From Bacteroidota bacterium (GTDB lineage Bacteria; Bacteroidota; Bacteroidia; Bacteroidales; GWA2-32-17), in contig JBBIRU010000010.1 of the NCBI GenBank assembly GCA_037441645.1, positions 34,544-98,543 of the forward strand: 64,000 bases of DNA, written 5' to 3'. This document shows positions 23,165 through 36,960 of this stretch, piece by piece (position 1 is the first letter of the stretch; every line of letters starts with the position of its first letter). The translations under genes were made by a program, and so were the position numbers. The notes below the pieces were generated by a model. That model was not told the DNA's origin. It saw only the letters and a list, made by a program, of their open reading frames with translations, and did not search any database.

Positions 23165-25279
23165 ATGAAGAAAATTACACTTGTTCTGTTCTTAATCCTT
23201 TTAGGAAATGTTTACTTTGCTTCATCACAAAGCATTGTTGTAACCACTCCGCAGGAAAGAAATGTTGTTCTTGAAGAATTCACGGGAATTCATTGTCAAT
23301 ACTGTCCCGAAGGGCATACCATTGCCCAGGCGTTGCAGGATGCACATCCCGGAAGAGTAGTCCTTGTGAATGTACATCAGGGAGGTTATGCAACACCTTC
23401 GGGCAGCGAACCTGATTTCCGCACTGCTTTTGGCGATGCTCTTGCCACAAATGCCTCTGTATCAGGCTATCCTTCAGGAACCGTTAACAGGCATTTATAT
23501 CCGAATATCGAAGCTACCATGGCATTGGGTCGTGGCAGCTGGAATGCCGCTGCTAACGAAGTATTTGCACAGCAATCACCGGTAAATGTCGGGTTCAATT
23601 CTTCTTATAACAGCGGAACCGGCGAACTTACTGTTAATGTGGAACTATATTATACCCAAAACAGCCCTGCTGCCGATAACTTCATCCAGGTTGCATTTTT
23701 AGAGAATCATCTTATAGGATTTCAGCAGTTAACTACCGGAACAAATAGCGCTTACGATCATAAGCATGTATTGCGTCATTTTATTACCGGCCAGTGGGGA
23801 GATATTGTCAGCACAACTACCCAGGGCACATTGGTTCAAAGAACTTATGTTTATACCGTTCCGGCAACGTATATCAATACAAACTGCACTATTTCAAATT
23901 GTGATGTGGCCGTTTATGTTTCAGAAAATCACAATGAAGTTTATACCGGTGGAGTTGCTGCCGTTGGCTCCAGTTTCAACGGAGGAATGAGTTTATATAC
24001 CGGAAACTTTAATCACCCAGCCGGAGAATTTTTACAGGGAACACAAGGTAATGTATCAACCTTTACTTTCTCTTCCTATTCCTCACTAACAGGAACAGAG
24101 GATTTCACCTATACCCTTACTACCGATGCTCCGGGTGACTGGGCAGGAAATTTCACCGTTGACGGAACAACTTATACTACAACGGCTACTGTGCCTGTTG
24201 CAAACGCAACCCCGGCAAATATTACCGTAAACGTTACGCCCGGGGCAACTGCAGCGGTTGCCAAATATACCCTGACCATGACATCTGTAAATAATCCCGG
24301 GGCCAATCCTCATATTATTGAATTATATGTAATTTCCGGAATTACCGACCTGGTTGTAAATGGCAGCGGCAGCTGGGGCGACGGAGGTTCGTATAACTGG
24401 CAGAGTGTTTATACCGACGGCCTTACTTTTGCCGGAAACACATCATTTGCCGCTGTTAATGCAAATGTAATGTTAAAAGCAGCAAACGGCAATGCATTAG
24501 GTGGTGTCGGCCATATGTATCTGAATATCGGCTGGACATTTCCCTCTTTCCAGGATGATGAAGCCACCGCCCTTATGAACTTTATGAATAACGGGGGTAA
24601 TGTTATGGTATGCGGCCAGGATATCGGATGGGACATTAAATCAGGTTCCGGATATGGTACTACAATTACCTCGAATTTATACACCAATTATATGCATGCT
24701 ACTTACAATGCTGACGGCGGAACCGGAAACAATTCACTGAACCCGGTCGCAACCGATTTAATTTTCGGAGGAACAGGCACCTCGCCTATTATTGATGTAT
24801 ATAACGGTAATCTTTACCCCGACCAGATAACCCCGATAACCGGGGCCGTATCTACTTTCAAATACGGCACTTCGGCCAATAACGGCGGTATCCGTTATAC
24901 CAACGGAACCTATAAAATGGTTTATATTGCACCGGGAATGGAACATTTAAGCAATATCACCACTAAAAATAACATTTTAAAACAAACACACGATTGGTTT
25001 CATGGCCTTTTAAGTGCTGAAAGCGCTAAAGCCAATCCATCTGATATTATTATTTATCCTAATCCGGCTTCCGATAAATTATATATTGATGCTTTCACTT
25101 ACAACCCTTCAGACCTTTCTGTTCAGATAGCAGATATTACAGGAAAAACAGTTCTGGAATCAGGCACATTATCGCAAAACCAATCCATTAATATTTCCAG
25201 TCTGGAAAGCGGATTTTACTTTGTAAAAATCTCCGGAAAAAACTCACAGGAAGTAAGAAAAATTGAAATTATAAAATAG
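23165..25279 (+). CDS. T9SS-secreted protein with an N-terminal Omp28-like/thioredoxin-like domain
   Basis: Signal peptide, then VVLEEFTGIHCQYCPEGH (an Omp28-related CxxC region). The C-terminal roughly 80 aa (IIIYPNPASDKLYID...GFYFVKISGKNSQEVRKIEIIK) match the Por/T9SS C-terminal sorting domain pattern. Confidence 0.7.
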   Translation: MKKITLVLFLILLGNVYFASSQSIVVTTPQERNVVLEEFTGIHCQYCPEGHTIAQALQDAHPGRVVLVNVHQGGYATPSGSEPDFRTAFGDALATNASVSGYPSGTVNRHLYPNIEATMALGRGSWNAAANEVFAQQSPVNVGFNSSYNSGTGELTVNVELYYTQNSPAADNFIQVAFLENHLIGFQQLTTGTNSAYDHKHVLRHFITGQWGDIVSTTTQGTLVQRTYVYTVPATYINTNCTISNCDVAVYVSENHNEVYTGGVAAVGSSFNGGMSLYTGNFNHPAGEFLQGTQGNVSTFTFSSYSSLTGTEDFTYTLTTDAPGDWAGNFTVDGTTYTTTATVPVANATPANITVNVTPGATAAVAKYTLTMTSVNNPGANPHIIELYVISGITDLVVNGSGSWGDGGSYNWQSVYTDGLTFAGNTSFAAVNANVMLKAANGNALGGVGHMYLNIGWTFPSFQDDEATALMNFMNNGGNVMVCGQDIGWDIKSGSGYGTTITSNLYTNYMHATYNADGGTGNNSLNPVATDLIFGGTGTSPIIDVYNGNLYPDQITPITGAVSTFKYGTSANNGGIRYTNGTYKMVYIAPGMEHLSNITTKNNILKQTHDWFHGLLSAESAKANPSDIIIYPNPASDKLYIDAFTYNPSDLSVQIADITGKTVLESGTLSQNQSINISSLESGFYFVKISGKNSQEVRKIEIIK

Positions 25280-25342: not shown

Positions 25343-27103
25343 TTAGTAAAGATAAATATCGTAAGGCATTCTGGCCAATACTCCATTCAGGCCGGTCAGA
25401 TTCTGCATTGTTTTAAAATATTTGTAAGCGGGTCCGAGTTCTTTCTGCAAATAGGTTGTTGATGCATTTTCTTTCATTTCTTTCATAATCTGGTCAAAAA
25501 ACGGAAGTTTTTCCGGCATCTCAATAATTCTGACCTGATCGGCTCCTACTTTTTCTTTGGCAATTTCAATAGCTCTTACCAAACCACCAAACTCATCAAT
25601 CAAACCGATTTTTTTTGCATTATCGCCACTCCACACACGGCCCTGCCCTATGCTGTCGACATTAGCTTTCTCAATACCTCTTCCATCGGCAACATGCCCA
25701 AGAAACACATCGTAAATTTCTTCAACACCTTGCTGAATGACAGCTTTTTCTCCCCTGGTCATGGGCCTGAACATAGAGCCGATACCTGCGCTTGCATTGG
25801 TTTTAACTCCATCAAAAGTAATTCCCAGTTTGTCGTTAAAAAGTTTCTGTGCATTCATCATCAGGCCAAAAACCCCGATGGAGCCGGTTATGGTAGTATG
25901 ATCGGCAACAATAACACTGGCCGGGCAGGAAATATAATATCCTCCGGAGGCAGCAACATCACCCATACTTACAATAACAGGCTTTACTTTTTTTGTAAGC
26001 ATTACTTCTCTCCAAATAACTTCTGAAGCTAACGCACTACCACCCGGACTGTTAACTCTTAACACAATGGCTTTTATCGAACTGTCCTCACGGGCTTTTC
26101 TTATTGTCTCAGATAATCCTTCTGATCCTATAGAGGCATCATCGCCCTGGCCCATTCCAATTTCACCGGTGGCGTAAATCAACGCTATTTTACTTTTTTT
26201 ACCTTTTTTGGTATTTACTGCCACTTTCCTATAGTTCTTCATTTCTACAAAACCCAGTTTTTTTCCTTTTGGAAGAGATACCAGGGAATGCAACTCATCT
26301 ATAATTTCGTCATAATATTTTAAGCCGTCTACCAGTCCCAGTTGCTGCGACATTATTGCATTCTTAACAAGCATACTGTCAGCCATTAAATTAAGACTAT
26401 CGATGCTTATCTTCCTTTCTTCGGAAATTCCTTTTAACAGGTAATTCCAGATTGAGCCTACATAAGTCAATGTCTGTTCTTTATTTTCAGAACTCATTTT
26501 ATCGAGAATAAAAGGCTCAACGGCGCTTTTGAATTTTCCATGACGGATTACTTCAGGTTCTACTCCTAATTTCTCAAGAGCTCCTTTAAAAAACATAACT
26601 TCCGATTCAAGTCCTTTAAATTCAACTGTTCCCTGTGGATTTAAATAAATTTTATCAGCAGCAGTCGATAAATAATATGCACCCTGTGTATAGTAATCAT
26701 TATAAGCAATAATAAATTTTCCTGATTTCCGGAAATCCAGAAGAGCATCACGTATCTCTTCAATTGTTGCAGGACTTGATTGCAGATCGGGAATATCCAT
26801 AAATATTCCTTTGATATTCTGGTCTTCTTTTGCTTTTCTTATATTTCTTAAAATGTCATTCAATCCCAGGTTAATATTTGCTTTAAACGAACCAAAATTC
26901 ATATTTTCAAAAGGATTATCCGACGTACGTTCGGTTATCGGGTAATCCAGCCTGATATGTAAAATTGATGAAGGTTCAATTTTAACTTCATCTTCCTTGC
27001 CGGAAATTGAAGCAACAATCATTAAAAAGACAAAAAAGAGGATAACATTAACTACTATTATTCCCAAGATTGTCGCAAAAAAATATTTAAAAAATTCTTT
27101 CAT
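25343..27103 (-). CDS. sppA: Signal peptide peptidase SppA (67K type)
   Basis: 586 aa with an N-terminal TM helix and two ClpP/S49 repeats (NSPGGSALASE, GDVAASGGYYIS). Confidence 0.88.
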   Translation of the reverse strand: MKEFFKYFFATILGIIVVNVILFFVFLMIVASISGKEDEVKIEPSSILHIRLDYPITERTSDNPFENMNFGSFKANINLGLNDILRNIRKAKEDQNIKGIFMDIPDLQSSPATIEEIRDALLDFRKSGKFIIAYNDYYTQGAYYLSTAADKIYLNPQGTVEFKGLESEVMFFKGALEKLGVEPEVIRHGKFKSAVEPFILDKMSSENKEQTLTYVGSIWNYLLKGISEERKISIDSLNLMADSMLVKNAIMSQQLGLVDGLKYYDEIIDELHSLVSLPKGKKLGFVEMKNYRKVAVNTKKGKKSKIALIYATGEIGMGQGDDASIGSEGLSETIRKAREDSSIKAIVLRVNSPGGSALASEVIWREVMLTKKVKPVIVSMGDVAASGGYYISCPASVIVADHTTITGSIGVFGLMMNAQKLFNDKLGITFDGVKTNASAGIGSMFRPMTRGEKAVIQQGVEEIYDVFLGHVADGRGIEKANVDSIGQGRVWSGDNAKKIGLIDEFGGLVRAIEIAKEKVGADQVRIIEMPEKLPFFDQIMKEMKENASTTYLQKELGPAYKYFKTMQNLTGLNGVLARMPYDIYLY

Positions 27104-27193: not shown

Positions 27194-27925
27194 TTAAAAT
27201 AATTTAAGAATTTTTCCGGAAAAGTGATTCCCGGTATCCGGGTTAAGTGATATAAAATACAAGCCGGAATCCAGGCTTTTCATATCTATAACAGGTTCTG
27301 GTTCCGTTATTCTTTTATTAAACAACAAAGCTCCGCTTTGAGAATAGAATGAAACAACAGCAGGTAATTCAACAGGTAAAAAATTTATTTTTAAAACAGA
27401 CTCATCCATTGAGTAATAAAATTTAGCCTGTGAATGTGCTGTATTATCTGAAACCCCAGAAACCGGACATGAAACATCATTTTGCTGAATGGATTCAACC
27501 GGAACCTGTTTCATAAAACGATTCGGACAGATAGCGATATATTGAGGAGCATAAGTAACTCCATAATCGTTAACAACTGAATTATTATATTGAGTACTGA
27601 AAGAAGGAAAAGTAGCAGGAAACTGATTATAAAAAGCATGAATTGCCGAATCGGAAACCCCGTTTATTTCTATACTCCAAACCCATACAGAATCACCATT
27701 ATATCCATGTTCCTGCCAGAAATTCTCAAGAATGGAAGTATTAACCTGGCAGGTTCCGCAATTAGTAATAAAAAAATCAAGAATCACTGTTTTTCCAAAA
27801 TCAAGCTCTGTGTACAGGTTTCTGGTAACACCGTCAATATCTGTTAATGTAAAATCGGGTGCTGGGTTCTGTGCCCGGCTATTAAAAAGAAATGAAAAAA
27901 AATATATTAATATCAGATATTTCAT
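27194..27925 (-). CDS. TlpA/redoxin-like thiol-disulfide oxidoreductase with a T9SS C-terminal sorting domain
   Basis: Signal peptide, APDFTLTDIDG...GKTVILDFFITNCGTCQ (redoxin CxxC), and a C-terminal GLYFISLNPDTGNHFSGKILKLF T9SS-type tail. Confidence 0.7.
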   Translation of the reverse strand: MKYLILIYFFSFLFNSRAQNPAPDFTLTDIDGVTRNLYTELDFGKTVILDFFITNCGTCQVNTSILENFWQEHGYNGDSVWVWSIEINGVSDSAIHAFYNQFPATFPSFSTQYNNSVVNDYGVTYAPQYIAICPNRFMKQVPVESIQQNDVSCPVSGVSDNTAHSQAKFYYSMDESVLKINFLPVELPAVVSFYSQSGALLFNKRITEPEPVIDMKSLDSGLYFISLNPDTGNHFSGKILKLF

Positions 27926-28843: not shown

Positions 28844-29500
28844 ATGAAATCAGAAAAAATAATAAGAAAAGGCATAGTAACCTTTGCAATAACAATATCC
28901 GGAATTTTTTCATTTTTAAATTCCGGTGCACAATGTGAAAAAAAAGATTTTTGCAGCGATGACTGGCGGGACGATTATGATTTCAGAAGCCAGTCTTCTT
29001 TTGCTAAACTATCGCCGGGAGATACATCGAGTGTTTCTGTAGTTCTTTATGGGAATCAGAAATACCGTATTTTCGTTTGTGCTGACGAAAAGCTCGGTGG
29101 CGTTACATGGAAAATTGTTAATCCTGAAAGAAAAACCAAACGTACCATACAAAGTATCAAAAAAGATACATTGGTCATCTATAAAACAAATGAAAACGGT
29201 GATTATATAACTGATGACCTCGGAAACCCGATTGTTAAAAGTAAAAATGTAAATATTGATACATTATGGGCAACCGAAAGGATTTCTGTCGATAAGGTAA
29301 TGTTTGACAGCAAAAAAAGTTCCGATAAACCTTATTTAGATGTTGTTCCCAAGAAAAGTGAAAGATATATTGTAAGAGTTACTGTCCCTGGAGGAGATCC
29401 AAATATAGCAGGGTGTGTAAATGTTTATGTGGGAAGAATTCCTGTAGGTTCAAAAAGCTTTAACAGGGGTGGAAACAATAAATCGGGCGATACTTATTAA
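28844..29500 (+). CDS. Secreted protein of unknown function
   Basis: 218 aa with an N-terminal hydrophobic signal (VTFAITISGIFSFLNSGAQC). It starts 16 nt after the previous gene and is followed by a strong terminator. Confidence 0.55.
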   Translation: MKSEKIIRKGIVTFAITISGIFSFLNSGAQCEKKDFCSDDWRDDYDFRSQSSFAKLSPGDTSSVSVVLYGNQKYRIFVCADEKLGGVTWKIVNPERKTKRTIQSIKKDTLVIYKTNENGDYITDDLGNPIVKSKNVNIDTLWATERISVDKVMFDSKKSSDKPYLDVVPKKSERYIVRVTVPGGDPNIAGCVNVYVGRIPVGSKSFNRGGNNKSGDTY

Positions 29501-29513
29501 GTATTAAAAAAAT

Positions 29514-29549
29514 TAAAAAAACCTCAAAGAAAAACTTTGAGGTTTTTTT
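29514..29549 (+). terminator. Rho-independent terminator
   Basis: aaaaaaacctcaaag-aaaaa-ctttgaggttttttt has a 9-bp stem (acctcaaag/ctttgaggt) flanked by A and T runs. Confidence 0.8.
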
Positions 29550-29606
29550 ATCTTAATTTTATACACTTTTTACATAATTCTGTAACTTTTTTGAATCTAT
29601 AGTATC

Positions 29607-29614
29607 TACTTTTG
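29607..29614 (+). promoter_or_regulatory. -7 promoter box (TActTTTG) for the PqqD/ATP-grasp operon
   Basis: tacttttg lies 26 nt upstream of the ATG at 29641 and just downstream of the terminator. Confidence 0.4.
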
Positions 29615-29640
29615 TACGAGCAAAATTAAAATCATAATTT

Positions 29641-29895
29641 ATGAACCTTAAAAAGAAAATTGCTGTTAGCGAAACCGGTTTTATTTTCGACCCCACAACA
29701 GGCGATTCATTTTCATTAAATCCTGTTGCCGCTGAAATTCTTACATTATTAAAAGAAGGAAAAAAAGAAGATGAAATAAAAAAATATTTTCTGAAGGAGT
29801 ACGATGTCGATGAACCCACTTTTGACCGCAGTTATCTTGATTTTGTGGCGATGCTCCGGCTCTATAATATGATAGAAGAAAATGAAAAAAACTAA
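29641..29895 (+). CDS. PqqD-family small protein (RiPP-recognition-element-like)
   Basis: 84 aa. GFIFDPTTGDSFSLNPVAAEILTLLKEGKKEDEIKKYFLKEYDVDEPTFDRSYLDFVAMLRLYNMI follows the PqqD pattern: a beta-strand, LNxxAxxIxxLL, a charged helix, Y-V, then DhxxFhxxL. The C-terminal tail is acidic (EENEKN). Confidence 0.7.
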   Translation: MNLKKKIAVSETGFIFDPTTGDSFSLNPVAAEILTLLKEGKKEDEIKKYFLKEYDVDEPTFDRSYLDFVAMLRLYNMIEENEKN

Positions 29896-30928
29896 AATAA
29901 CAGTTGCCGTTTCAGGCTTAAATAATACCGATAATCCCGGACCGGGAGTACCCGTAATCAGGGCTCTTCGTGAATCCGATATTTTCGATGTCAGAATAAT
30001 CGGGCTGGCTTACGAAAATCTGGAACCGGGTATTTACATGCACGATGTGGTAGATAAAGTTTACCAGGTACCCTATCCTTCCATCGGGAGTGATAAATTA
30101 CTGCAACGGTTAGCCTATATTCATTCCGTTGAAAATCTGAATGTACTCATTCCCAACTTTGACGCGGAATTATACTCTTTCATTTCTTTTGAGAATAAAC
30201 TTAACAAGATGGGAATCGCTACGTGGTTACCAACCATGGAACAATTCGAGGAAAGGCATAAAACAAAGCTTCCGGAATACGGTAAAAAATACGAGGTACT
30301 TGTTCCCAGGAGCAAACCAATAACAAATGTCACCGAAATTGCCGGACTGGCAAATGAATTCAGTTATCCCCTGCTTGTCAAAGGAAAATTTTATGACGCT
30401 TATGTTGCTTTTAATCCCGAACAGGTTGCTTTGTATTTTAATAAAATTGCAACAAAGTGGGGAGTTCCCATTATTATACAGGAATTTATCAGGGGAACTG
30501 AGGTAAATGTAATTGCTCTCGGCGACGGAAAAGGAAATACCGTAGGCGCTGTTCCCATGCGCAAACAATATATCACCGATAAAGGGAAAGCCTGGGGTGG
30601 AATAACTCTCGATGACCAGGATATGCTCAAGCTGACACACAAAATCATAAAAAAAACAAAGTGGCGTGGAGGAATGGAGCTTGAACTCATTAAAACAATT
30701 GACAGTAAATATTATCTTATCGAAATCAATCCAAGAATTCCTGCATGGGTTTACCTGGCTGTAGGGGCCGGACAAAATCTTCCCGAAGCGCTGGTAAAAC
30801 TGGCTATGGGTAAAAAAGTTAAGCCCTTTACCTCGTACGAAACAGGTAAAATGTTTATCCGTTATTCCTGGGATATGATTGTTGACTTAAAGGAATTCGA
30901 AAAACTATCCACCTTCGGTGAACTTTAA
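29882..30928 (+). CDS. ATP-grasp family ligase
   Basis: 348 aa. YPLLVKGKFYDAY (ATP-binding Lys), IIQEFIRGTE (hinge) and YLIEINPRIPAW (Mg/ATP E-x-N). The start overlaps the PqqD-like ORF by 14 nt. Confidence 0.8.
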   Translation: MKKTKITVAVSGLNNTDNPGPGVPVIRALRESDIFDVRIIGLAYENLEPGIYMHDVVDKVYQVPYPSIGSDKLLQRLAYIHSVENLNVLIPNFDAELYSFISFENKLNKMGIATWLPTMEQFEERHKTKLPEYGKKYEVLVPRSKPITNVTEIAGLANEFSYPLLVKGKFYDAYVAFNPEQVALYFNKIATKWGVPIIIQEFIRGTEVNVIALGDGKGNTVGAVPMRKQYITDKGKAWGGITLDDQDMLKLTHKIIKKTKWRGGMELELIKTIDSKYYLIEINPRIPAWVYLAVGAGQNLPEALVKLAMGKKVKPFTSYETGKMFIRYSWDMIVDLKEFEKLSTFGEL

Positions 30929-30969: not shown

Positions 30970-32331
30970 ATGGAAAAGAAACGCTTTGAAAGACCGATTA
31001 TCAAAAAACTTCAGACCGGAATGCCCAATAAATTCGGAATGAAAACCGAATATGAACCCATTACTGAGATTGACGGAGTATCTGTAAAGGATTTAATTTC
31101 CAAACATGGAAGCCCGCTGTATATTATTTCTGAAAATACCATCCGCGATACTTATCATGAGGCTCACAGGGCTTTCAGTACGCGCTATCCCAAAGTTCAG
31201 TTTGCATGGTCGTATAAAACCAACTACATGAATGCTGTATGTAATGTTTTTCATACAGAGGGTTCGTGGGCAGAAGTAGTTTCGGGTTTTGAATACGATA
31301 AAGCCATCACAAATAAAGTTCCCGGGTCTAAAATTTTATTCAACGGGCCTGATAAAAGCGTGGAGGATCTTAAAAAAGCCATAAAAAACGGTTCGTATAT
31401 TCATATTGATCATTTTGATGAACTTTATACCATTATTGAGCTAACCAACAAAATGACCGAAAGGCCTAAAGTTGCCATCAGGGTGAACATGGATACCGGT
31501 ATTTATCCGCAATGGACACGCTTCGGGTTTAACTACGAAAACGGTGAAGCATGGGAAGCCATTAACCGCATTATTATTACTAAAAAGATTGATCTGGTTG
31601 GATTGCATTGCCATATCGGAACTTATATTTTAGCTCCCTGGGCTTATGGTACCGCAGCTGCAAAACTGGCTGATCTCGCTTCTGCCATAGATAAAAAATT
31701 CAAGCAACAGATAAAATATATTGATATGGGAGGCGGTTTTGCTTCCAAAAATACATTAAAAGGCGCATATCTTCCCGGCTCCGACACCTGCCCTACTTTC
31801 GATCAGTATGCAGATGCCATAACAACTGCTTTAATCAACAGCCAGATCAGTCCCGAACATTTGCCGGTTCTTATCCTGGAAACCGGGCGGGCCTTGATCG
31901 ATGATGCAGGGTTCCTGGCAGGAACCGTACTGGCAAACAAACGGCTCCCCGAGGGAAAACTGGCAACCATTATCGACATTGGTGTTAACCTGCTGTTCAC
32001 CTCTTTCTGGTACGATCATAAAATTACCCCTGCCCAGCCCTTCAGCCATCATACCGAAGATGCCATTATTTATGGTCCACTTTGTATGAACATTGATGTG
32101 ATCCGTGAATCTGTTCAGCTGCCCCCGATGAAAAAAGGGGACAATATTGTTATCAGCCGCATCGGGGCTTATAACATGACACAATGGATGCAGTTCATCA
32201 CACTTCGCCCAAATATTGTTATGATAGATAAAAACAGTAAGGTTCATGTAATCCGCGGAAACGAAACAGCCGGAATGATTTCAGAAAATGAAAACGTTCC
32301 CGCCCACCTTGCTAAATTTGACTTAAATTAG
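30970..32331 (+). CDS. Fold-type III PLP-dependent decarboxylase (Orn/DAP/Arg decarboxylase family), substrate unknown
   Basis: WSYKTNY (PLP lysine), HCHIGT, DMGGGF, ETGRAL, GPLCMNID (catalytic Cys region, diverged from CESGD) and GAYNM. Confidence 0.8.
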   Translation: MEKKRFERPIIKKLQTGMPNKFGMKTEYEPITEIDGVSVKDLISKHGSPLYIISENTIRDTYHEAHRAFSTRYPKVQFAWSYKTNYMNAVCNVFHTEGSWAEVVSGFEYDKAITNKVPGSKILFNGPDKSVEDLKKAIKNGSYIHIDHFDELYTIIELTNKMTERPKVAIRVNMDTGIYPQWTRFGFNYENGEAWEAINRIIITKKIDLVGLHCHIGTYILAPWAYGTAAAKLADLASAIDKKFKQQIKYIDMGGGFASKNTLKGAYLPGSDTCPTFDQYADAITTALINSQISPEHLPVLILETGRALIDDAGFLAGTVLANKRLPEGKLATIIDIGVNLLFTSFWYDHKITPAQPFSHHTEDAIIYGPLCMNIDVIRESVQLPPMKKGDNIVISRIGAYNMTQWMQFITLRPNIVMIDKNSKVHVIRGNETAGMISENENVPAHLAKFDLN

Positions 32332-32334
32332 TTT

Positions 32335-34533
32335 GTGAAAATCAGGCAAACAATAACTATAATATTAAAGGGGGCAGTATTCAGCTATCCCCAGATTTTT
32401 TTTTCACAAAGTAAAATTTTTGCCGCTTTTTTAATACTCATTACCTTTCTCGACCCTTTTATAGGTATCGGCGGATTGGTATGTATTCTGGCTGCCAATA
32501 CTGCCGCTTATTTCATCGGGTTGAACGAACATAAAATTTCAAGCGGTCTTTATGGTTTCAATGCCCTCCTTGCCGGGCTGGGAATTGCTTCCTTTTTTGA
32601 ACCGACATGGGAATTATACACGGTAATCGTTTTTTCCGGACTGTTTTCATTATTTGTTACAGTAGTATTCGAAGGAATTATCGGAAAGTATTACCTGCCC
32701 TTTTTAAGCATCCCCTTCCTTGTATCCTTATGGACGGTACTTCTTGCATCGGGTGAATTTAATGCCATCGGTATTTCGGAAAGAGGTGTTTACTTCCTGA
32801 ACGATTTATACAGCCTGGGAGGAACAACGCTTGTTAATTTCTATCACACCTGTAACGGGATAGCCATTCCTCTTTCGTTAAAATCATATTTCTTATCGCT
32901 CGGGGCTATTTTTTTCCAGGATAATGTTCTTGCAGGAATTCTTATATCTGCCGGGCTGCTTATATTCTCAAGAATAGCGTTCACCCTGTCACTCCTGGGA
33001 TATTATTCCGCTTTTTTCTTTTATTTGTTAATAGGAAGCGATATAACACAGGCTACATACTCTCATATCGGGTTTAACTTTATTCTTACCTCCATCGCGA
33101 TTGGCGGATTTTTCATGATCCCTTCAAGAAATTCGTACCTGTGGGCAATCCTTATAATCCCCATTACCTCGCTTATTACCATTGGGGCAGGCAGGATATT
33201 GGGAACCTGGTTCCTTTCGGTTTACTCATTACCTTTTAATATAGTTGTGCTGGTCTTTATATATACTCTCCGGTTCAGGGTACGTTTTCATAAATTTCTG
33301 ACCGAAGTGCCTGTTCAACAATTCATGCCCGAAAGAAACCTGTATAATTACGTTGTATCCGTTAACCGGTTCAGTAAAAGCTTCTCTACTTTTCCCATAA
33401 AACTACCTTTCTGGGGTGAATGGTTTGTGGAGCAAGGGCACAACGGGGAAATAACGCATAAAGAAGAATGGCAGCATGCCTGGGATTTCACCATTCATAA
33501 CAACGAAAATAAAACCTATAATACCCAGGGGGTTTCGGTTGAGAATTATTTATGCTACAATAAGGCAGTGGTAGCTCCCGCCTACGGAACAGTTGAAGAA
33601 GTTATTGATGGCATTCACGACAACAACATAAAGGAGGTTAACCTGAACAGCAACTGGGGAAATACCGTTGTAATAAAACATGCCGATTTCCTGTACTCCA
33701 AACTCTGCCACCTGAAACCGGGCAGCATTAAAGTTCAGAAAGGCGATTATGTAAAACCCGGACAAATTATTGCGGCTGTAGGAAACAGCGGACGTTCGCC
33801 CGAACCACATTTACATTTTCAACTCCAGGCCACTCCTTTTATCGGCTCAAAAACACTGAATTACCCCATCAGTCACTTTATTTCGAAAAAAAACAACCAG
33901 CTACTGTTTGAGTCTTTCGGAACTCCGAAACAAAGTACAGTAGTTTCGAATATTGAAATAAATCCCCTGATTAAAAAAGCATTTACCTTTATTCCCGGAC
34001 AAAAATTTTCCATTTCGGTAAATGAAAACGGGAAAGAAAAAAATATTAAATGGGAAGTTGTTACCGATATTTATAACAGTACATACATTTACTGCCACGA
34101 ATCGAAATCAGCTGCATACCTGTTTAACGACGGAACCATTCACTTCTTTAAGCACTTTGCAGGCGACAAATCATCTCTTTTATATTATTTTTATTTAGGA
34201 TGTTATAAAATAGCCCTGGGTTTCTATAAAAACCTGGAACTGGAAGATGAGTACTCTTTGTCCGAAATCTTCAGTTTACCTTCCCTGGTTTTACAGGACT
34301 TTGCAGCACCTTTTTTCCTGTTCATGAAAACGAGCTATAAAACCCGGTATTCGTATATAGATGACATGATAAACCCATTGCACATTACTATAAATTCCAC
34401 GGCAAAAACAATGATCACAAACAATGAAACCAACCGGATCGATTTCACACTTGAGATAGGCTCATCCGGGCTTGGAATATTTGAAGTAAATTCTAAAAAA
34501 AGAAAAATAAGAGCAGTCATTGTTGAATCTTAA
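32335..34533 (+). CDS. Polytopic membrane protein: urea-transporter-like (UT) domain fused to an M23/LytM-type metallopeptidase domain and an uncharacterised C-terminal domain
   Basis: A GTG start lies 3 nt after the upstream stop. The N-terminal roughly 320 aa have about 10 hydrophobic helices, with KGAVFSYPQIFFSQ and SSGLYGFNALLAGLG resembling UT-family signatures. The middle region has THKEEWQHAWDF ... GNSGRSPEPHLHFQL (M23 HxH motif). The last roughly 240 aa show no recognisable motif. Confidence 0.65.
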   Translation: MKIRQTITIILKGAVFSYPQIFFSQSKIFAAFLILITFLDPFIGIGGLVCILAANTAAYFIGLNEHKISSGLYGFNALLAGLGIASFFEPTWELYTVIVFSGLFSLFVTVVFEGIIGKYYLPFLSIPFLVSLWTVLLASGEFNAIGISERGVYFLNDLYSLGGTTLVNFYHTCNGIAIPLSLKSYFLSLGAIFFQDNVLAGILISAGLLIFSRIAFTLSLLGYYSAFFFYLLIGSDITQATYSHIGFNFILTSIAIGGFFMIPSRNSYLWAILIIPITSLITIGAGRILGTWFLSVYSLPFNIVVLVFIYTLRFRVRFHKFLTEVPVQQFMPERNLYNYVVSVNRFSKSFSTFPIKLPFWGEWFVEQGHNGEITHKEEWQHAWDFTIHNNENKTYNTQGVSVENYLCYNKAVVAPAYGTVEEVIDGIHDNNIKEVNLNSNWGNTVVIKHADFLYSKLCHLKPGSIKVQKGDYVKPGQIIAAVGNSGRSPEPHLHFQLQATPFIGSKTLNYPISHFISKKNNQLLFESFGTPKQSTVVSNIEINPLIKKAFTFIPGQKFSISVNENGKEKNIKWEVVTDIYNSTYIYCHESKSAAYLFNDGTIHFFKHFAGDKSSLLYYFYLGCYKIALGFYKNLELEDEYSLSEIFSLPSLVLQDFAAPFFLFMKTSYKTRYSYIDDMINPLHITINSTAKTMITNNETNRIDFTLEIGSSGLGIFEVNSKKRKIRAVIVES

Positions 34534-34543
34534 ATAAGAATAT

Positions 34544-35158
34544 ATGAAACAGATAACATTAATTTTTGTGTCCCTTTTATTTCCGGCACTCCTTTTAGCA
34601 CAGGAAAATGTGGATAATGTTTTAAAAGCATTCAGCCAGAGTTATACCAACGAAACCAAAGGCGATTATACCAATGCCATTAAAGATATAGTTGCCGTTT
34701 ATTCGGCCGATTCGTATGAACAGAATGTACGTCTGGGCTGGTTAAGTTACGAAGCCGGAAAATTTACTGAATCGGTTGCCTATTACGAAAAAGCGCTGGC
34801 TTTAAAACCCATGAGCGAAGAAGCCCGCATGGGCATTGTGTATCCTGCCTCGGCTCTCGGCAACTGGGACCAGGTTTTAAACCAGTATTTAAAAATACTC
34901 GAAAATAATCCCGGAAACACAACGGTAAATTACAGGATTGGCAACATTTATTACGAAAGAAAAGATTATGCTAAAGCTTTCACCTATTTCGAAAAGGTGG
35001 TAAATCTGTATCCTTTCGGTTACGATGCTTTGCTCATGTATGCCTGGACAAACCTTAAACTGGGTAAAAACCGCGAGGCCAATGTACTGTTTAATAAAAT
35101 CCTGATGCTCTCACCTAACGATACTTCTGCACTGGAAGGGTTGGGATTGATCAAGTAA
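34544..35158 (+). CDS. Secreted TPR-repeat protein
   Basis: Signal peptide MKQITLIFVSLLFPALLLAQ, with TPR-like units (AVAYYEKALALKP, YAKAFTYFEKVVNLYP). It starts 10 nt after the previous gene. Confidence 0.7.
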   Translation: MKQITLIFVSLLFPALLLAQENVDNVLKAFSQSYTNETKGDYTNAIKDIVAVYSADSYEQNVRLGWLSYEAGKFTESVAYYEKALALKPMSEEARMGIVYPASALGNWDQVLNQYLKILENNPGNTTVNYRIGNIYYERKDYAKAFTYFEKVVNLYPFGYDALLMYAWTNLKLGKNREANVLFNKILMLSPNDTSALEGLGLIK

Positions 35159-35703: not shown

Positions 35704-36960
35704 TCATTTTATTACAAATCTCGCAGTTCTTCTGCTCAACTGGCGTACAAAAATCTGGCGGCTTCCTGTTACCCGCTTTATGGCTTCATCGGTATAATGA
35801 CGAACGGTTACCAGTTCGAGATTCTGATTATACAGAATCTGAAACGAAGAGTTCAGTTCCCCGATAAAATAATGAATTTTACTTTCGTCATTATCGGCAA
35901 CAATAGAAAAACTAATGGCCGAATTCTGCATCATGTTTGCCTTGATCCTGTATTTTGCAAGTTTTGCAAAAATAAGACTCATATTGTCCTCAGCAATAAA
36001 TGAGAAATCCTTGGGAGAAATGGATATCAATACCTGGTTGGTTTTGATAATGTATACCGGCGGAATAATCAGATTTTCGTGCACATCATGAATCACCGTC
36101 CCTTCTTCTTTATGTGCCAGGAATGGTTTTACATATAAAGGAATATTTTTGTTCTGTATAGGCTTGATTGTTTTCGGGTGAATAACCTGTGCGCCATAAT
36201 AAGCCAGTTCTATGGCTTCATGATACGAAATTTCTTTCAGTTTAACAGCATCGGGCATCAGCCGCGGATCGGCATTTAAAATCCCGGGAACATCTTTCCA
36301 TATGGTAACACTTTCAGCATCGAGAAAATACGCAAGCAGGGCTGCCGTATAGTCAGAGCCTTCCCGTCCGAGCGTGGTCGATTTCCCGTTCGCAGAACAA
36401 CCTATAAAACCCTGGGTTATATATTTACTTCCTTTTTGTTTGCCGAACGCTTCGTTTATAAGTTTTGTCGAAAGATCAAAATCAACCCTGGCGTCGCGGA
36501 ATGTTTCATCGGTGCGCAGGCATGTACGCATATCTACCCATTGAATATCGATACCCTGGGATTGTAAATAAGCAAAAACTATTCTGGAAGAAATTATTTC
36601 GCCCAGTGAAACAATTTTATCGTACTCGTAATCTTTTTCAAAAGAAGTTCCGGCAGCAATTAATTTTTCAGCATCATTAAACAGGTTCTCCAGGTCGGAA
36701 TAAACAGGGTTGTCGGAACCGGAAAAAAGCTCTGACACAAGATGATAATGAAAATCCTTAACTGTTTTAAGCATATCCTGCTTGTCGGGCATGCTCTTAA
36801 AATAGGAATTATGAACTTTTTCAAGGGCATTGGTCATTTTGCCCATAGCCGAAACCACAATTACCAGGTTCTGATCCTGTGTATCTGACACTATTTTTGC
36901 CAGGTTTCTTACACCTTCTGCATCTTTTATGGATGCGCCGCCAAATTTATATACTATCAT
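35704..36960 (-). CDS. lysC: Aspartate kinase
   Basis: 418 aa. MIVYKFGGASIKD, VVVSAMGKMTN, GREGSDYTAA, and C-terminal ACT-like repeats. Confidence 0.9.
   Translation of the reverse strand: MIVYKFGGASIKDAEGVRNLAKIVSDTQDQNLVIVVSAMGKMTNALEKVHNSYFKSMPDKQDMLKTVKDFHYHLVSELFSGSDNPVYSDLENLFNDAEKLIAAGTSFEKDYEYDKIVSLGEIISSRIVFAYLQSQGIDIQWVDMRTCLRTDETFRDARVDFDLSTKLINEAFGKQKGSKYITQGFIGCSANGKSTTLGREGSDYTAALLAYFLDAESVTIWKDVPGILNADPRLMPDAVKLKEISYHEAIELAYYGAQVIHPKTIKPIQNKNIPLYVKPFLAHKEEGTVIHDVHENLIIPPVYIIKTNQVLISISPKDFSFIAEDNMSLIFAKLAKYRIKANMMQNSAISFSIVADNDESKIHYFIGELNSSFQILYNQNLELVTVRHYTDEAIKRVTGSRQIFVRQLSRRTARFVIK

Follow-up and report, generated by a model that had tools for sequence, protein, structure and literature searches.

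A leader-like motif on a pyridoxal phosphate-dependent decarboxylase as the probable ligand of a discrete RiPP recognition element in a precursor-less operon of Bacteroidota

A 64,000-nucleotide stretch of a Bacteroidota bacterium genome (NCBI GenBank assembly GCA_037441645.1, contig JBBIRU010000010.1, positions 34,544 to 98,543 of the forward strand; the whole stretch is hereafter called the window, and is numbered from its first letter) contains an operon that begins with a gene for a small recognition element of peptides that are made by the ribosome and then modified after translation (RiPPs). This RiPP recognition element (RRE) is followed by an ATP-grasp ligase, a pyridoxal phosphate (PLP)-dependent decarboxylase, a membrane protein with urea-transporter-family and M23 metallopeptidase domains (UT-M23), and a tetratricopeptide repeat (TPR) protein. 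RREs are the main class-independent handle for the mining of RiPP clusters, and an RRE without a precursor is usually treated as a sign of an unsolved cluster; to our knowledge, RRE-leader recognition has so far been known only for presenting short precursor peptides to RiPP enzymes. Comparative analysis of the operon points to a different use—that is, to RRE-leader recognition as a protein-protein docking code, in which a leader motif on a full-length PLP decarboxylase is read by a discrete RRE, either to assemble a ligase-decarboxylase machine or to direct modification of the enzyme, within an operon that occurs across Bacteroidota, Ignavibacteriota, Chlorobiota-related lineages, and Marinimicrobia and makes a conjugated amine. 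We lean slightly toward accepting this proposal as a whole. Its narrower form, that the RRE docks the N-terminal tag of the decarboxylase for the purpose of enzyme assembly, appears reasonably probable from the sequences and is the reading favored here. The features on which the argument turns are as follows.

29641-29895, + strand: RRE gene, encoding a discrete PqqD-family RiPP recognition element of 84 amino acids (open reading frame and Pfam PqqD match)
29830-29832, + strand: codon of RRE residue 64 (Ser in the window), four residues N-terminal of the divider Phe68
29882-29895, + strand: 14-nt overlap of the RRE and ATP-grasp genes, with the RRE end (..ENEKN and stop) and the ATP-grasp start (MKKTK..) read from the same bases; translational coupling
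29882-30928, + strand: ATP-grasp ligase, 348 amino acids (Pfam/NCBIfam and structure matches)
30970-32331, + strand: alanine-racemase-fold PLP decarboxylase, 453 amino acids (best solved relative FigC, E=5.4e-58)
30970-31038, + strand: leader-like decarboxylase tag, amino acids 1-23, MEKKRFERPIIKKLQTGMPNKFG (alignment of 75 orthologs)
30985-31002, + strand: core motif of the tag, F6-E-R-P9-I-I11

The PqqD-like character ascribed to the 84-residue protein in a preliminary description of this DNA was confirmed by the Pfam PqqD model PF05402, which it matches at 44.4 bits (cut-off 23.4; E=2.1e-11) over profile positions 4-67 of 67. A profile built from the RRE family found the lasso peptide proteins TbiB1 (E=1.6e-12), TfuB1 (1.1e-7), and PbaB1 (1.1e-3) in the PDB, and matched true PqqD only weakly (E 0.06-0.13). 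The AlphaFold2 (AF2) model, with a mean predicted local distance difference test score (pLDDT) of 81.8, is a three-strand, three-helix winged helix (beta3-alpha3), with strands at residues 14-17 and 22-25 together with a short N-terminal strand, and helices at residues 28-38, 43-53, and 58-74. In Foldseek searches, the only significant PDB matches of the model were lasso B1 proteins solved with their leaders; the template modeling (TM) score was 0.81, at 30% identity, for TbiB1, and 0.78-0.82 across TbiB1 and TfuB1. The most conserved columns of the family lie in the sheet (I7-N27) and on helix 3 (D67-F68..L72). Furthermore, the residues N27 (invariant), F24, L26, I33, Y54, V56, F68, L72, and L/M77 align with the leader cleft of PbaB1 and of LppB, the corresponding protein of linear polyphosphorylated peptides (LPPs), as follows.

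RRE V29, I33, F50, Y54, and V56: first pocket of the solved complexes
RRE F24, L26, L72, and M77: second pocket of the solved complexes
RRE N27: equivalent of LppB N33 (profile alignment)
RRE F68: the cleft-dividing Phe, equivalent of PbaB1 F83 and LppB F74 (profile alignment)

By modeled fold and by cleft, the 84-residue protein is thus a genuine RRE of the lasso B1 type. The NCBIfam models for lasso PqqD proteins score it far under their cut-offs (NF033530, 28.4 against 70 bits; NF033536, 16.8 against 80 bits). The public names of the orthologs are inconsistent, and include "PqqD family protein of HPr-rel-A system," "cell division protein YceG," and "hypothetical protein." The first of these, which JGI gives to some orthologs, is probably an over-annotation, given that the HPr-rel-A PqqD model TIGR04353 scores 29.4 bits, below its cut-off of 35, and that no HPr-kinase-like genes were found in the loci around the operon.

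Discrete lasso-type RREs recognize leaders through a [Y/W]xxPx[L/V/I/F/A] motif (PMC13381572), and the decarboxylase, whose gene is the second one downstream of the RRE gene, bears a closely similar motif, [F/Y]xxPx[I], in its N-terminal region. Residues 1-18 of the decarboxylase project past the N-termini of FigC and Methanocaldococcus jannaschii LysA, and this N-terminal extension is the best-conserved part of the first 33 residues of the enzyme. Across the 75 orthologs, positions K3, [F/Y]6, P9, [K/R]13, K21, and G23 are invariant, and E7 (73/75), R8 (71/75), I11 (74/75), and G17 (72/75) are nearly so; the family form of the motif is [F/Y]ERPxI. Three other conserved matches to the motif occur in the four proteins, and these lie in core nucleotide-binding strands of the ATP-grasp ligase and in a transmembrane helix.

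The most specific evidence for recognition of this motif by the RRE comes from covariation. RRE residue 64 aligns with an Asp in TbiB1, an Asp in TfuB1, and Gln79 in PbaB1, and, by the same spacing of four residues before the divider Phe, with Asp70 of LppB. Asp70 of LppB forms a hydrogen bond with the leader Tyr, and Gln79 of PbaB1 does so with the leader Trp (PMC13381572). A coupling between RRE residue 64 and decarboxylase residue 6 was expected from the solved complexes before the data were examined. For the comparison, 80 loci were retrieved from the genome matches and 80 from the metagenome matches, each set of matches numbering more than 560, with the first-round analyses comprising 86 loci. 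In the first set of pairs, from 74 loci, Tyr6 occurred with Asp or Asn at RRE position 64 in 26/26 cases, and Phe6 with Tyr, Ser, Thr, or Ala in 48/48. With the 80 metagenome loci added, Tyr6 was accompanied by Asp (80) or Asn (12) in 92/92 pairs, and Phe6 by Tyr (40), Ser (15), Ala (2), or Thr (2) in 59/59. There are thus no exceptions among 151/151 RRE-decarboxylase pairs, the pair in the window being Ser64 with Phe6. Among 17,030 RRE-by-decarboxylase column pairs, the 64/6 pair came out on top (z 9.8), as it did among the 25,160 pairs of the larger set (z 15.7, with the runner-up at 11.3). Indeed, among 1,327 variable columns of the decarboxylase, ATP-grasp ligase, and UT-M23 protein, decarboxylase column 6 alone splits off the Asp/Asn class, even when two exceptions are allowed. 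Fitch parsimony on neighbor-joining trees of the ATP-grasp ligase gave 3 (74 taxa) and 6 (151 taxa) changes per character, all of them coincident. Tag columns make up 4% of the variable decarboxylase columns; when inter-protein pairs are ranked, they contribute 3 to the first 10, 5 to the first 20, and 9 to the first 50, where 0.4, 0.9, and 2.2 would be expected. The direction of the switch also appears chemically sensible from the sequences: a hydrogen-bond acceptor or donor would face the Tyr hydroxyl, and neutral residues would face Phe.

Could this pattern be inherited rather than functional? The RRE-like protein might be a structural or regulatory subunit of the ATP-grasp ligase that no longer binds peptide, with the motif and the covariation left over from ancestry or produced by indirect constraint. 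The translational coupling of the two genes would fit such a subunit, as would the fact that RRE column 64 also covaries, although imperfectly, with columns of the ATP-grasp ligase and UT-M23 protein. Against it, the most conserved residues of the RRE are exactly those of the cleft, the sole perfect tracker of residue 64 in the entire set of variable columns is the aromatic residue of the motif, and the direction of the 64/6 change makes chemical sense. We therefore regard loss of peptide binding as highly unlikely.

On the favored docking reading, the ligand of the RRE would be the decarboxylase tag, approximately amino acids 3-17 ([F/Y]6-E-R-P9-x-I11-x-[K/R]-[L/I]..G17), and not a free precursor. 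By homology with the B1-leader complexes, the aromatic residue 6 would occupy the first hydrophobic pocket, formed by V29, I33, F50, Y54, V56, and residue 64; Pro9 would pack between V29/I33 and F68; and Ile11 would enter the second pocket, formed by F24, L26, F68, L72, and M77. Tag residues 12-15 would extend the sheet along strand beta3. Given the translational coupling of the RRE and ATP-grasp genes, the RRE may be the docking subunit of the ligase, tethering the decarboxylase to it. An amino acid conjugated through its side chain by the ATP-grasp ligase would then be handed directly to the decarboxylase, in chemistry of the kind carried out by FigA/FigC, SbnH, MccE, and BtrJ/BtrK, and subsequent processing or export would fall to the UT-M23 membrane protein and the secreted TPR proteins.

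The comparison shows the RRE fold and its conserved cleft, the conservation of the operon, the lack of a small ORF, the tag motif, and the covariation. We infer the physical RRE-tag binding, the RRE-ligase complex, the channeling, and the product chemistry in this scheme from evidence that is wholly computational, being comparative and based on structure by homology, and this weighs against it, as do several particular points. Only 3-6 independent co-switches of the 64/6 pair are counted, and these from a neighbor-joining tree, while RRE column 64 also follows clades, reaching z values of up to 9-11 against other columns. The first residue of the canonical leader motif is Tyr or Trp, but about 40% of this family have Phe there. 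The contact between the RRE and the ATP-grasp ligase is presumed from the coupling of their genes, and in a few loci these are separated by a further gene. The scheme also does not account for the presence of the M23 domain, the UT domain, and the TPR proteins. In addition, G17, K21, [F/Y]22, and G23 (codons within 31018-31038) are invariant or nearly so, and the next ten residues are variable; docking alone does not account for these conserved positions, which could touch the ATP-grasp ligase or the M23 domain or else form part of the decarboxylase fold.

The last point leads to an alternative in which the RRE binds the same tag, but does so to present the N-terminus of the decarboxylase as a substrate, in a RiPP-like maturation of a full-length PLP enzyme: the ATP-grasp ligase would add to or cross-link a residue such as K3, E7, or K21, or the M23 peptidase would cut the chain, for example before G23. 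All of the evidence for tag binding applies equally to this possibility, and the conservation of G17, K21, [F/Y]22, and G23 beyond the docking motif would follow naturally from it. Contacts with the modifying enzymes have been proposed for the segment of LPP leaders downstream of the RRE motif (PMC13381572), which also counts in its favor. The operon encodes both an amide ligase that uses ATP and a peptidase whose HLH motif is intact, giving the same functional trio as lasso B1, B2, and C, made up of unrelated enzymes. However, no conserved lasso-like acceptor is found, with position 29 being Glu or Asp in only 41/75 orthologs; the ATP-grasp ligase resembles small-molecule ligases, and not RimK/LysX or graspetide ligases; and conservation from K21 to G23 may simply reflect the decarboxylase fold. 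The fully conserved pocket of the decarboxylase for a conjugated small substrate, moreover, gives the ligase an obvious small-molecule role. Maturation of the decarboxylase is thus unlikely, though it deserves serious consideration. A lasso-like ring on the decarboxylase was also considered, as the spacing from I11 to G23 resembles that from Leu(-12) to Gly1 in lasso precursors; it was rejected because no acidic acceptor is conserved 7-9 residues later.

Docking of the decarboxylase tag would also account for an absence that the preliminary description had already remarked on, namely that of any visible precursor beside the RRE. The search for one took in all open reading frames (ORFs) of at least 30 amino acids, which were clustered, and then all intergenic ORFs of 8-70 amino acids, in the 86 loci. 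No conserved small ORF of at least 8 amino acids was found in or around the operon in any of these, so that the proposed check for a small ORF adjoining homologous operons came back negative, in agreement with what had been seen in the window; the recurrent small-ORF clusters turned out to be frame shadows of conserved genes or of an upstream AraC-type regulator. Nor did the 86 loci contain, near the operon, a precursor with a repeated core motif of the graspetide type. An adjacent precursor exists nowhere in this RRE operon family, most likely because the recognized "leader" is fused to the decarboxylase. Of the three options that the preliminary description had entertained—a precursor encoded elsewhere, the small protein itself as substrate or carrier, or a chaperone for a non-ribosomal substrate—none names an enzyme-borne leader, the chaperone coming closest of the three.

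The first of those options supposes a free leader peptide of the YxxPxL type, encoded elsewhere, which the RRE binds and the ATP-grasp ligase, decarboxylase, and M23 peptidase modify. The intact, lasso-like cleft of the RRE is compatible with such a peptide, and other ATP-grasp enzymes that modify proteins are known to act on substrates encoded at unlinked sites, as RimK does on ribosomal protein S6; the present searches, moreover, covered loci and the 64-kb window rather than whole genomes. Yet apart from the missing small ORF around the 86 operons, a profile search for a free-standing copy of the decarboxylase tag retrieved only decarboxylase N-termini in the 64-kb window and 166 loci. The operon is also present in more than 560 species genomes with a ligase that is about 70% identical, unlike patchy, fast-evolving RiPP clusters, and the perfect 64/6 coupling would have to be a coincidence or an indirect effect. 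An unlinked precursor is accordingly a distinctly unlikely explanation.

A further alternative starts from the end of the RRE itself, which reads MIEENEKN. The preliminary description had noted this acidic C-terminal tail and had considered a carrier of the LysW type, in which the small protein would be a carrier or substrate and its acidic C-terminus the attachment site for the ATP-grasp ligase. The tail is indeed acidic in the window, many ortholog tails are rich in Glu or Asp, the final three residues are disordered in the RRE model, and the butirosin proteins BtrI, BtrJ, and BtrK offer a precedent for a small carrier with an ATP-grasp ligase and a related decarboxylase. Across 85 orthologs, however, acidity of the tail is not a conserved feature: the tail extends 0-11 residues past the last helix; its final residue is E in 23 (27%), N in 12, and D in 12, the rest being K, A, S, R, G, F, Q, V, or T; and 31/85 tails are without net acidic charge. 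In the window, the codons of ..ENEKN share their bases with the MKKTK start of the ATP-grasp ligase, so the E/N/K-rich tail is probably in large part a by-product of a purine-rich start read in another frame. LysW is a zinc ribbon with paired Cys motifs. The RRE contains zero cysteines in its 84 residues and therefore cannot form a LysW-like zinc ribbon, and no LysW chain was found among the top 50 Foldseek matches of its model; the proposed comparison with PqqD and LysW thus came out as a winged-helix RRE of the lasso B1 type. The ATP-grasp ligase, too, is unlike LysX and RimK. A LysW-like acceptor tail was rejected on tail variability, codon overlap, fold, and ligase type, and the conserved Glu11 of the SETG turn was dropped as an attachment site, since nothing singles it out; an acidic turn at this place is, by the Pfam consensus, ordinary in PqqD-family proteins. 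The acidic tail of the RRE is incidental, and the carrier idea, already largely refuted through the lack of a conserved acceptor, is scarcely credible.

The two catalytic proteins were compared with known enzymes. The ATP-grasp model (pLDDT 87.7) has as its top 50 Foldseek matches 2pn1 (of unknown function), biotin carboxylases, PurD, PurK, and the L-amino-acid ligases BL00235 and RizA, with no LysX, RimK, or graspetide ligase among them. Its profile matches are confined to ATPgrasp_Ter, ATP-grasp_3, and PRK12767-type models, none being of the MdnB/C type, and no LysX/RimK model appears among its NCBIfam hits. Two invariant segments of the ligase, GLNNTDNPGPG (29912-29947, amino acids 11-22) and ITDKGKAWGG (30572-30604, amino acids 231-241), fall where this otherwise confident model is least certain, with pLDDT values of 64 and 59, respectively, in 10-residue blocks; these invariant loops, flexible in the model, are candidates for substrate or partner binding.

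The decarboxylase scores 211 bits against the LysA model TIGR01048 (cut-off 297.9) and 227 bits against the FslC model NF041039 (cut-off 500). The diaminopimelate (DAP) decarboxylase Arg that binds the distal carboxylate is replaced by Thr in FigC, and the residue after the catalytic Cys is Asp or Glu in enzymes that act on free basic substrates (PMC7857480). In the decarboxylase of the window, T344 stands in the place of this Arg, as in FigC, and C372-M373 replaces Cys-Glu/Asp, with Met after the catalytic Cys again as in FigC. The citrate-binding residues His357, Arg387, and Asn389 of FigC are replaced by Ile375, Gln405, and Met407. Residues T344, Y348, C372, M373, I375, and Q405 are invariant in the 75 orthologs, with W347 conserved in 74/75 and M407 in 81%. 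These FigC-like specificity residues, suited to an amino acid conjugated through its side chain, count in favor of the docking reading. Assignment as a DAP decarboxylase (LysA) is ruled out by the score below cut-off and the missing specificity residues; assignment as an FslC/FigC N-citrylornithine decarboxylase is ruled out by the score, by the citrate residues, and by the operon having no synthetase for siderophores made independently of nonribosomal peptide synthetases (NIS synthetase). The clade of FigC, SbnH, AcsE, MccE, and BtrK decarboxylates amino acids already conjugated through their side chains (PMC7857480). The simplest chemistry would therefore be that the ATP-grasp ligase makes a side-chain conjugate, from which the decarboxylase removes the alpha-carboxylate; no characterized pathway combining ATP-grasp conjugation, FigC-like decarboxylation, and a UT-M23 protein was found.

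The remaining genes and signals of the operon in the window are the following.

29514-29550, + strand: bidirectional terminator-like hairpin, a perfect 16-bp stem with A- and T-runs at both sides (terminator scan)
29607-29614, + strand: TACTTTTG, a match to TAnnTTTG and a candidate promoter only (pattern match), 27 nt 5' of the RRE start codon
32335-34533, + strand: UT-M23 membrane protein, 732 amino acids, with a urea-transporter-family domain at amino acids 17-311, an M23 metallopeptidase domain at amino acids 409-498, and a C-terminal region of approximately 230 amino acids
34544-35158, + strand: TPR protein, 204 amino acids, with a signal-like hydrophobic N-terminus; the last conserved gene of the operon

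The M23 domain of the UT-M23 protein keeps the HLH motif, and its second motif, PHLHF, is standard. The standard spacing of the first M23 motif is HxxxD; the first zinc-ligand region of this protein (amino acids ~367-384, 33433-33486) is atypical, with a conserved T-H-K...A-W-D-F, and the Pfam M23 match starts at amino acid 409. Because the M23 domain comes after the last transmembrane segment, and the ends of urea-transporter-type domains are cytoplasmic, the peptidase probably faces the cytoplasm.

The hairpin at 29514-29550 closes the preceding gene (28844-29500) and forms the 5' border of the operon. In the 140 nt upstream of the RRE (29501-29640), the + strand has no ATG, as had been stated in the preliminary description, and the sole ORF is a 21-codon TTG ORF (29537-29602) that begins within the terminator hairpin of the preceding gene. 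The junctions within the operon measure -14, 41, 3, and 10 nt, and hence none has space for an additional ORF, again as first described; the 14-nt overlap of the RRE end with the ATP-grasp start at 29882 was likewise borne out by the ORF coordinates. TAnnTTTG is the Bacteroidetes -7 promoter element, to which 29607-29614 may correspond; a TTTG at 29590 lies nearer than the usual -33 spacing. A sigma-70 promoter scan gave no enrichment, with 24 sites against 21.8 expected.

Elsewhere, the RRE gene lies immediately 5' of the ATP-grasp gene in 85 of the 86 first-round loci, the 86th ending at a contig edge, and in 164 of 167 sources overall, so the arrangement is not due to chance. In roughly 85% of the 86 loci, the gap or overlap between the two genes is no more than approximately 25 nt. 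In two loci (L029:6148-7008 and L033:6175-7008), a membrane protein of 277-286 amino acids, matching DUF4405 in the L029 copy, sits between the two genes, indicating that coupling is common, yet not obligatory. In a third locus (L024), the gap is filled by an unrelated 115-residue protein.

The operon recurs in more than 560 species genomes, with at least 566 confirmed ATP-grasp matches in the genome collection, and the same gene order (RRE, ATP-grasp, decarboxylase, UT-M23, TPR) was found in diverged metagenomic contigs. The 80 genome loci come from Bacteroidales, Rikenellaceae, and Marinilabiliales-type genera, from Cytophagales (Algoriphagus and Cognataquiflexum) and Flavobacteriales, and also from Ignavibacteria, Chlorobi/Kapaibacteria-type metagenome-assembled genomes (MAGs), and one Marinimicrobia MAG. 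The ATP-grasp ligase is approximately 70% identical across these orders and lineages, so that the operon looks to be under housekeeping-type constraint, unlike a typical RiPP cluster. Full-text searches of the available literature returned no account of the operon, nor of an RRE that recognizes a leader carried by an enzyme.

Some loci carry additional genes. In most of the orthologous operons (55 loci), a gene for an extra protein of approximately 450 amino acids, with a signal-like N-terminus and one weak TPR match, lies between the UT-M23 and TPR genes (for example, L001:15051-16364 and L002:14754-15569). The window has only a 10-nt gap at this place (34533-34544) and no such gene, as is the case in locus L065; the gene is therefore dispensable or was lost in the lineage of the window. 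An AraC-family regulator (HTH_18) of approximately 190 amino acids, with a Cys-rich N-terminus (..NMVCHCC..), lies directly 5' of the RRE gene in L009 (6041-6619) and about 29 other loci, and is not present in the window; it is possibly a dedicated regulator of the operon and a hint at the controlling signal. In the window, an aspartokinase-like gene of the amino-acid-kinase family (35704-36960, - strand) converges on the end of the operon; this adjacency was not seen at other loci and looks coincidental. Participation of the operon in DAP or peptidoglycan-peptide metabolism was rejected, as the decarboxylase lacks the DAP decarboxylase specificity residues and the aspartokinase-like neighbor is not conserved elsewhere. 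Upstream of the operon are genes for an Omp28-domain protein with a type IX secretion C-terminal sorting domain (23165-25279, + strand), an SppA-type protein of peptidase family S49 (25343-27103, - strand), and a redoxin-family protein (27194-27925, - strand), which fit a Bacteroidota origin and are not conserved beside the operon.

The operon was also compared with characterized systems. It resembles the lasso B1 systems (TbiB1, TfuB1/FusB1, and PbaB1, with YxxPxL or WxxPxL leaders) in the fold, homology, and cleft residues of the RRE, in the motif of the candidate ligand, and in the position of the residue that would pair with its aromatic side chain. Unlike those systems, it has the motif at the N-terminus of a 453-residue enzyme, and the partners of the RRE are an ATP-grasp ligase, a PLP decarboxylase, and a UT-M23 protein; a B2 protease, an Asn-synthetase-type cyclase, and a short precursor are missing from all operon loci, with neither of the two enzymes found among the conserved genes of the 86 loci. 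The LppB protein represents another non-lasso pathway that reuses a B1-type RRE with a YxxP leader (PMC13381572), and LPP precursors can be protein-sized, at 35-200 amino acids (PMC13381572). LppA, however, is a dedicated, in-cluster precursor and substrate, whereas here the motif is carried by a catalytic enzyme of the pathway. As in the PqqD-PqqA-PqqE system, in which PqqD hands a peptide to a partner enzyme, the protein is a small, stand-alone member of the PqqD family (PF05402), but both a radical-SAM enzyme and a PqqA-like ORF are missing, and the similarity to true PqqD is weak.

With respect to the chemistry, FigA/FigC likewise pair a ligase with a subsequent alanine-racemase-fold decarboxylase that acts on a side-chain-conjugated amino acid; the ligase here is of the ATP-grasp type and not an NIS synthetase, the citrate-binding residues of FigC are replaced, and the aligned core of FigC is preceded by only 12 native residues, which leaves no room for this tag. 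The BtrI/BtrJ/BtrK set of butirosin biosynthesis also combines a small protein of approximately 87 amino acids with an ATP-grasp ligase, BtrJ, and a clade-2 PLP decarboxylase, but BtrI is an acyl carrier with a covalently bound substrate, whereas the RRE is without a conserved attachment site. With LysW/LysX, the operon shares a small protein gene beside an ATP-grasp gene and, in the window, an acidic C-terminus; the fold differs, the C-terminus is not conserved, and the ATP-grasp ligase is not of the LysX/RimK type.

If the docking reading is correct, some "orphan" RREs would be adaptors, and hunting for the missing peptide would be the wrong question to ask of them. The leader/RRE pair would constitute a portable, natural docking system that wires enzymes together and could be useful for pathway engineering, with a specificity switch consisting of Tyr with Asp/Asn versus Phe with Tyr/Ser. 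In addition, an operon that is very widespread and highly conserved among environmental and gut-related bacteria of the Bacteroidota group, and that apparently lacks a published description, would gain a testable starting point, comprising a peptide, its partner, and a single-residue switch.

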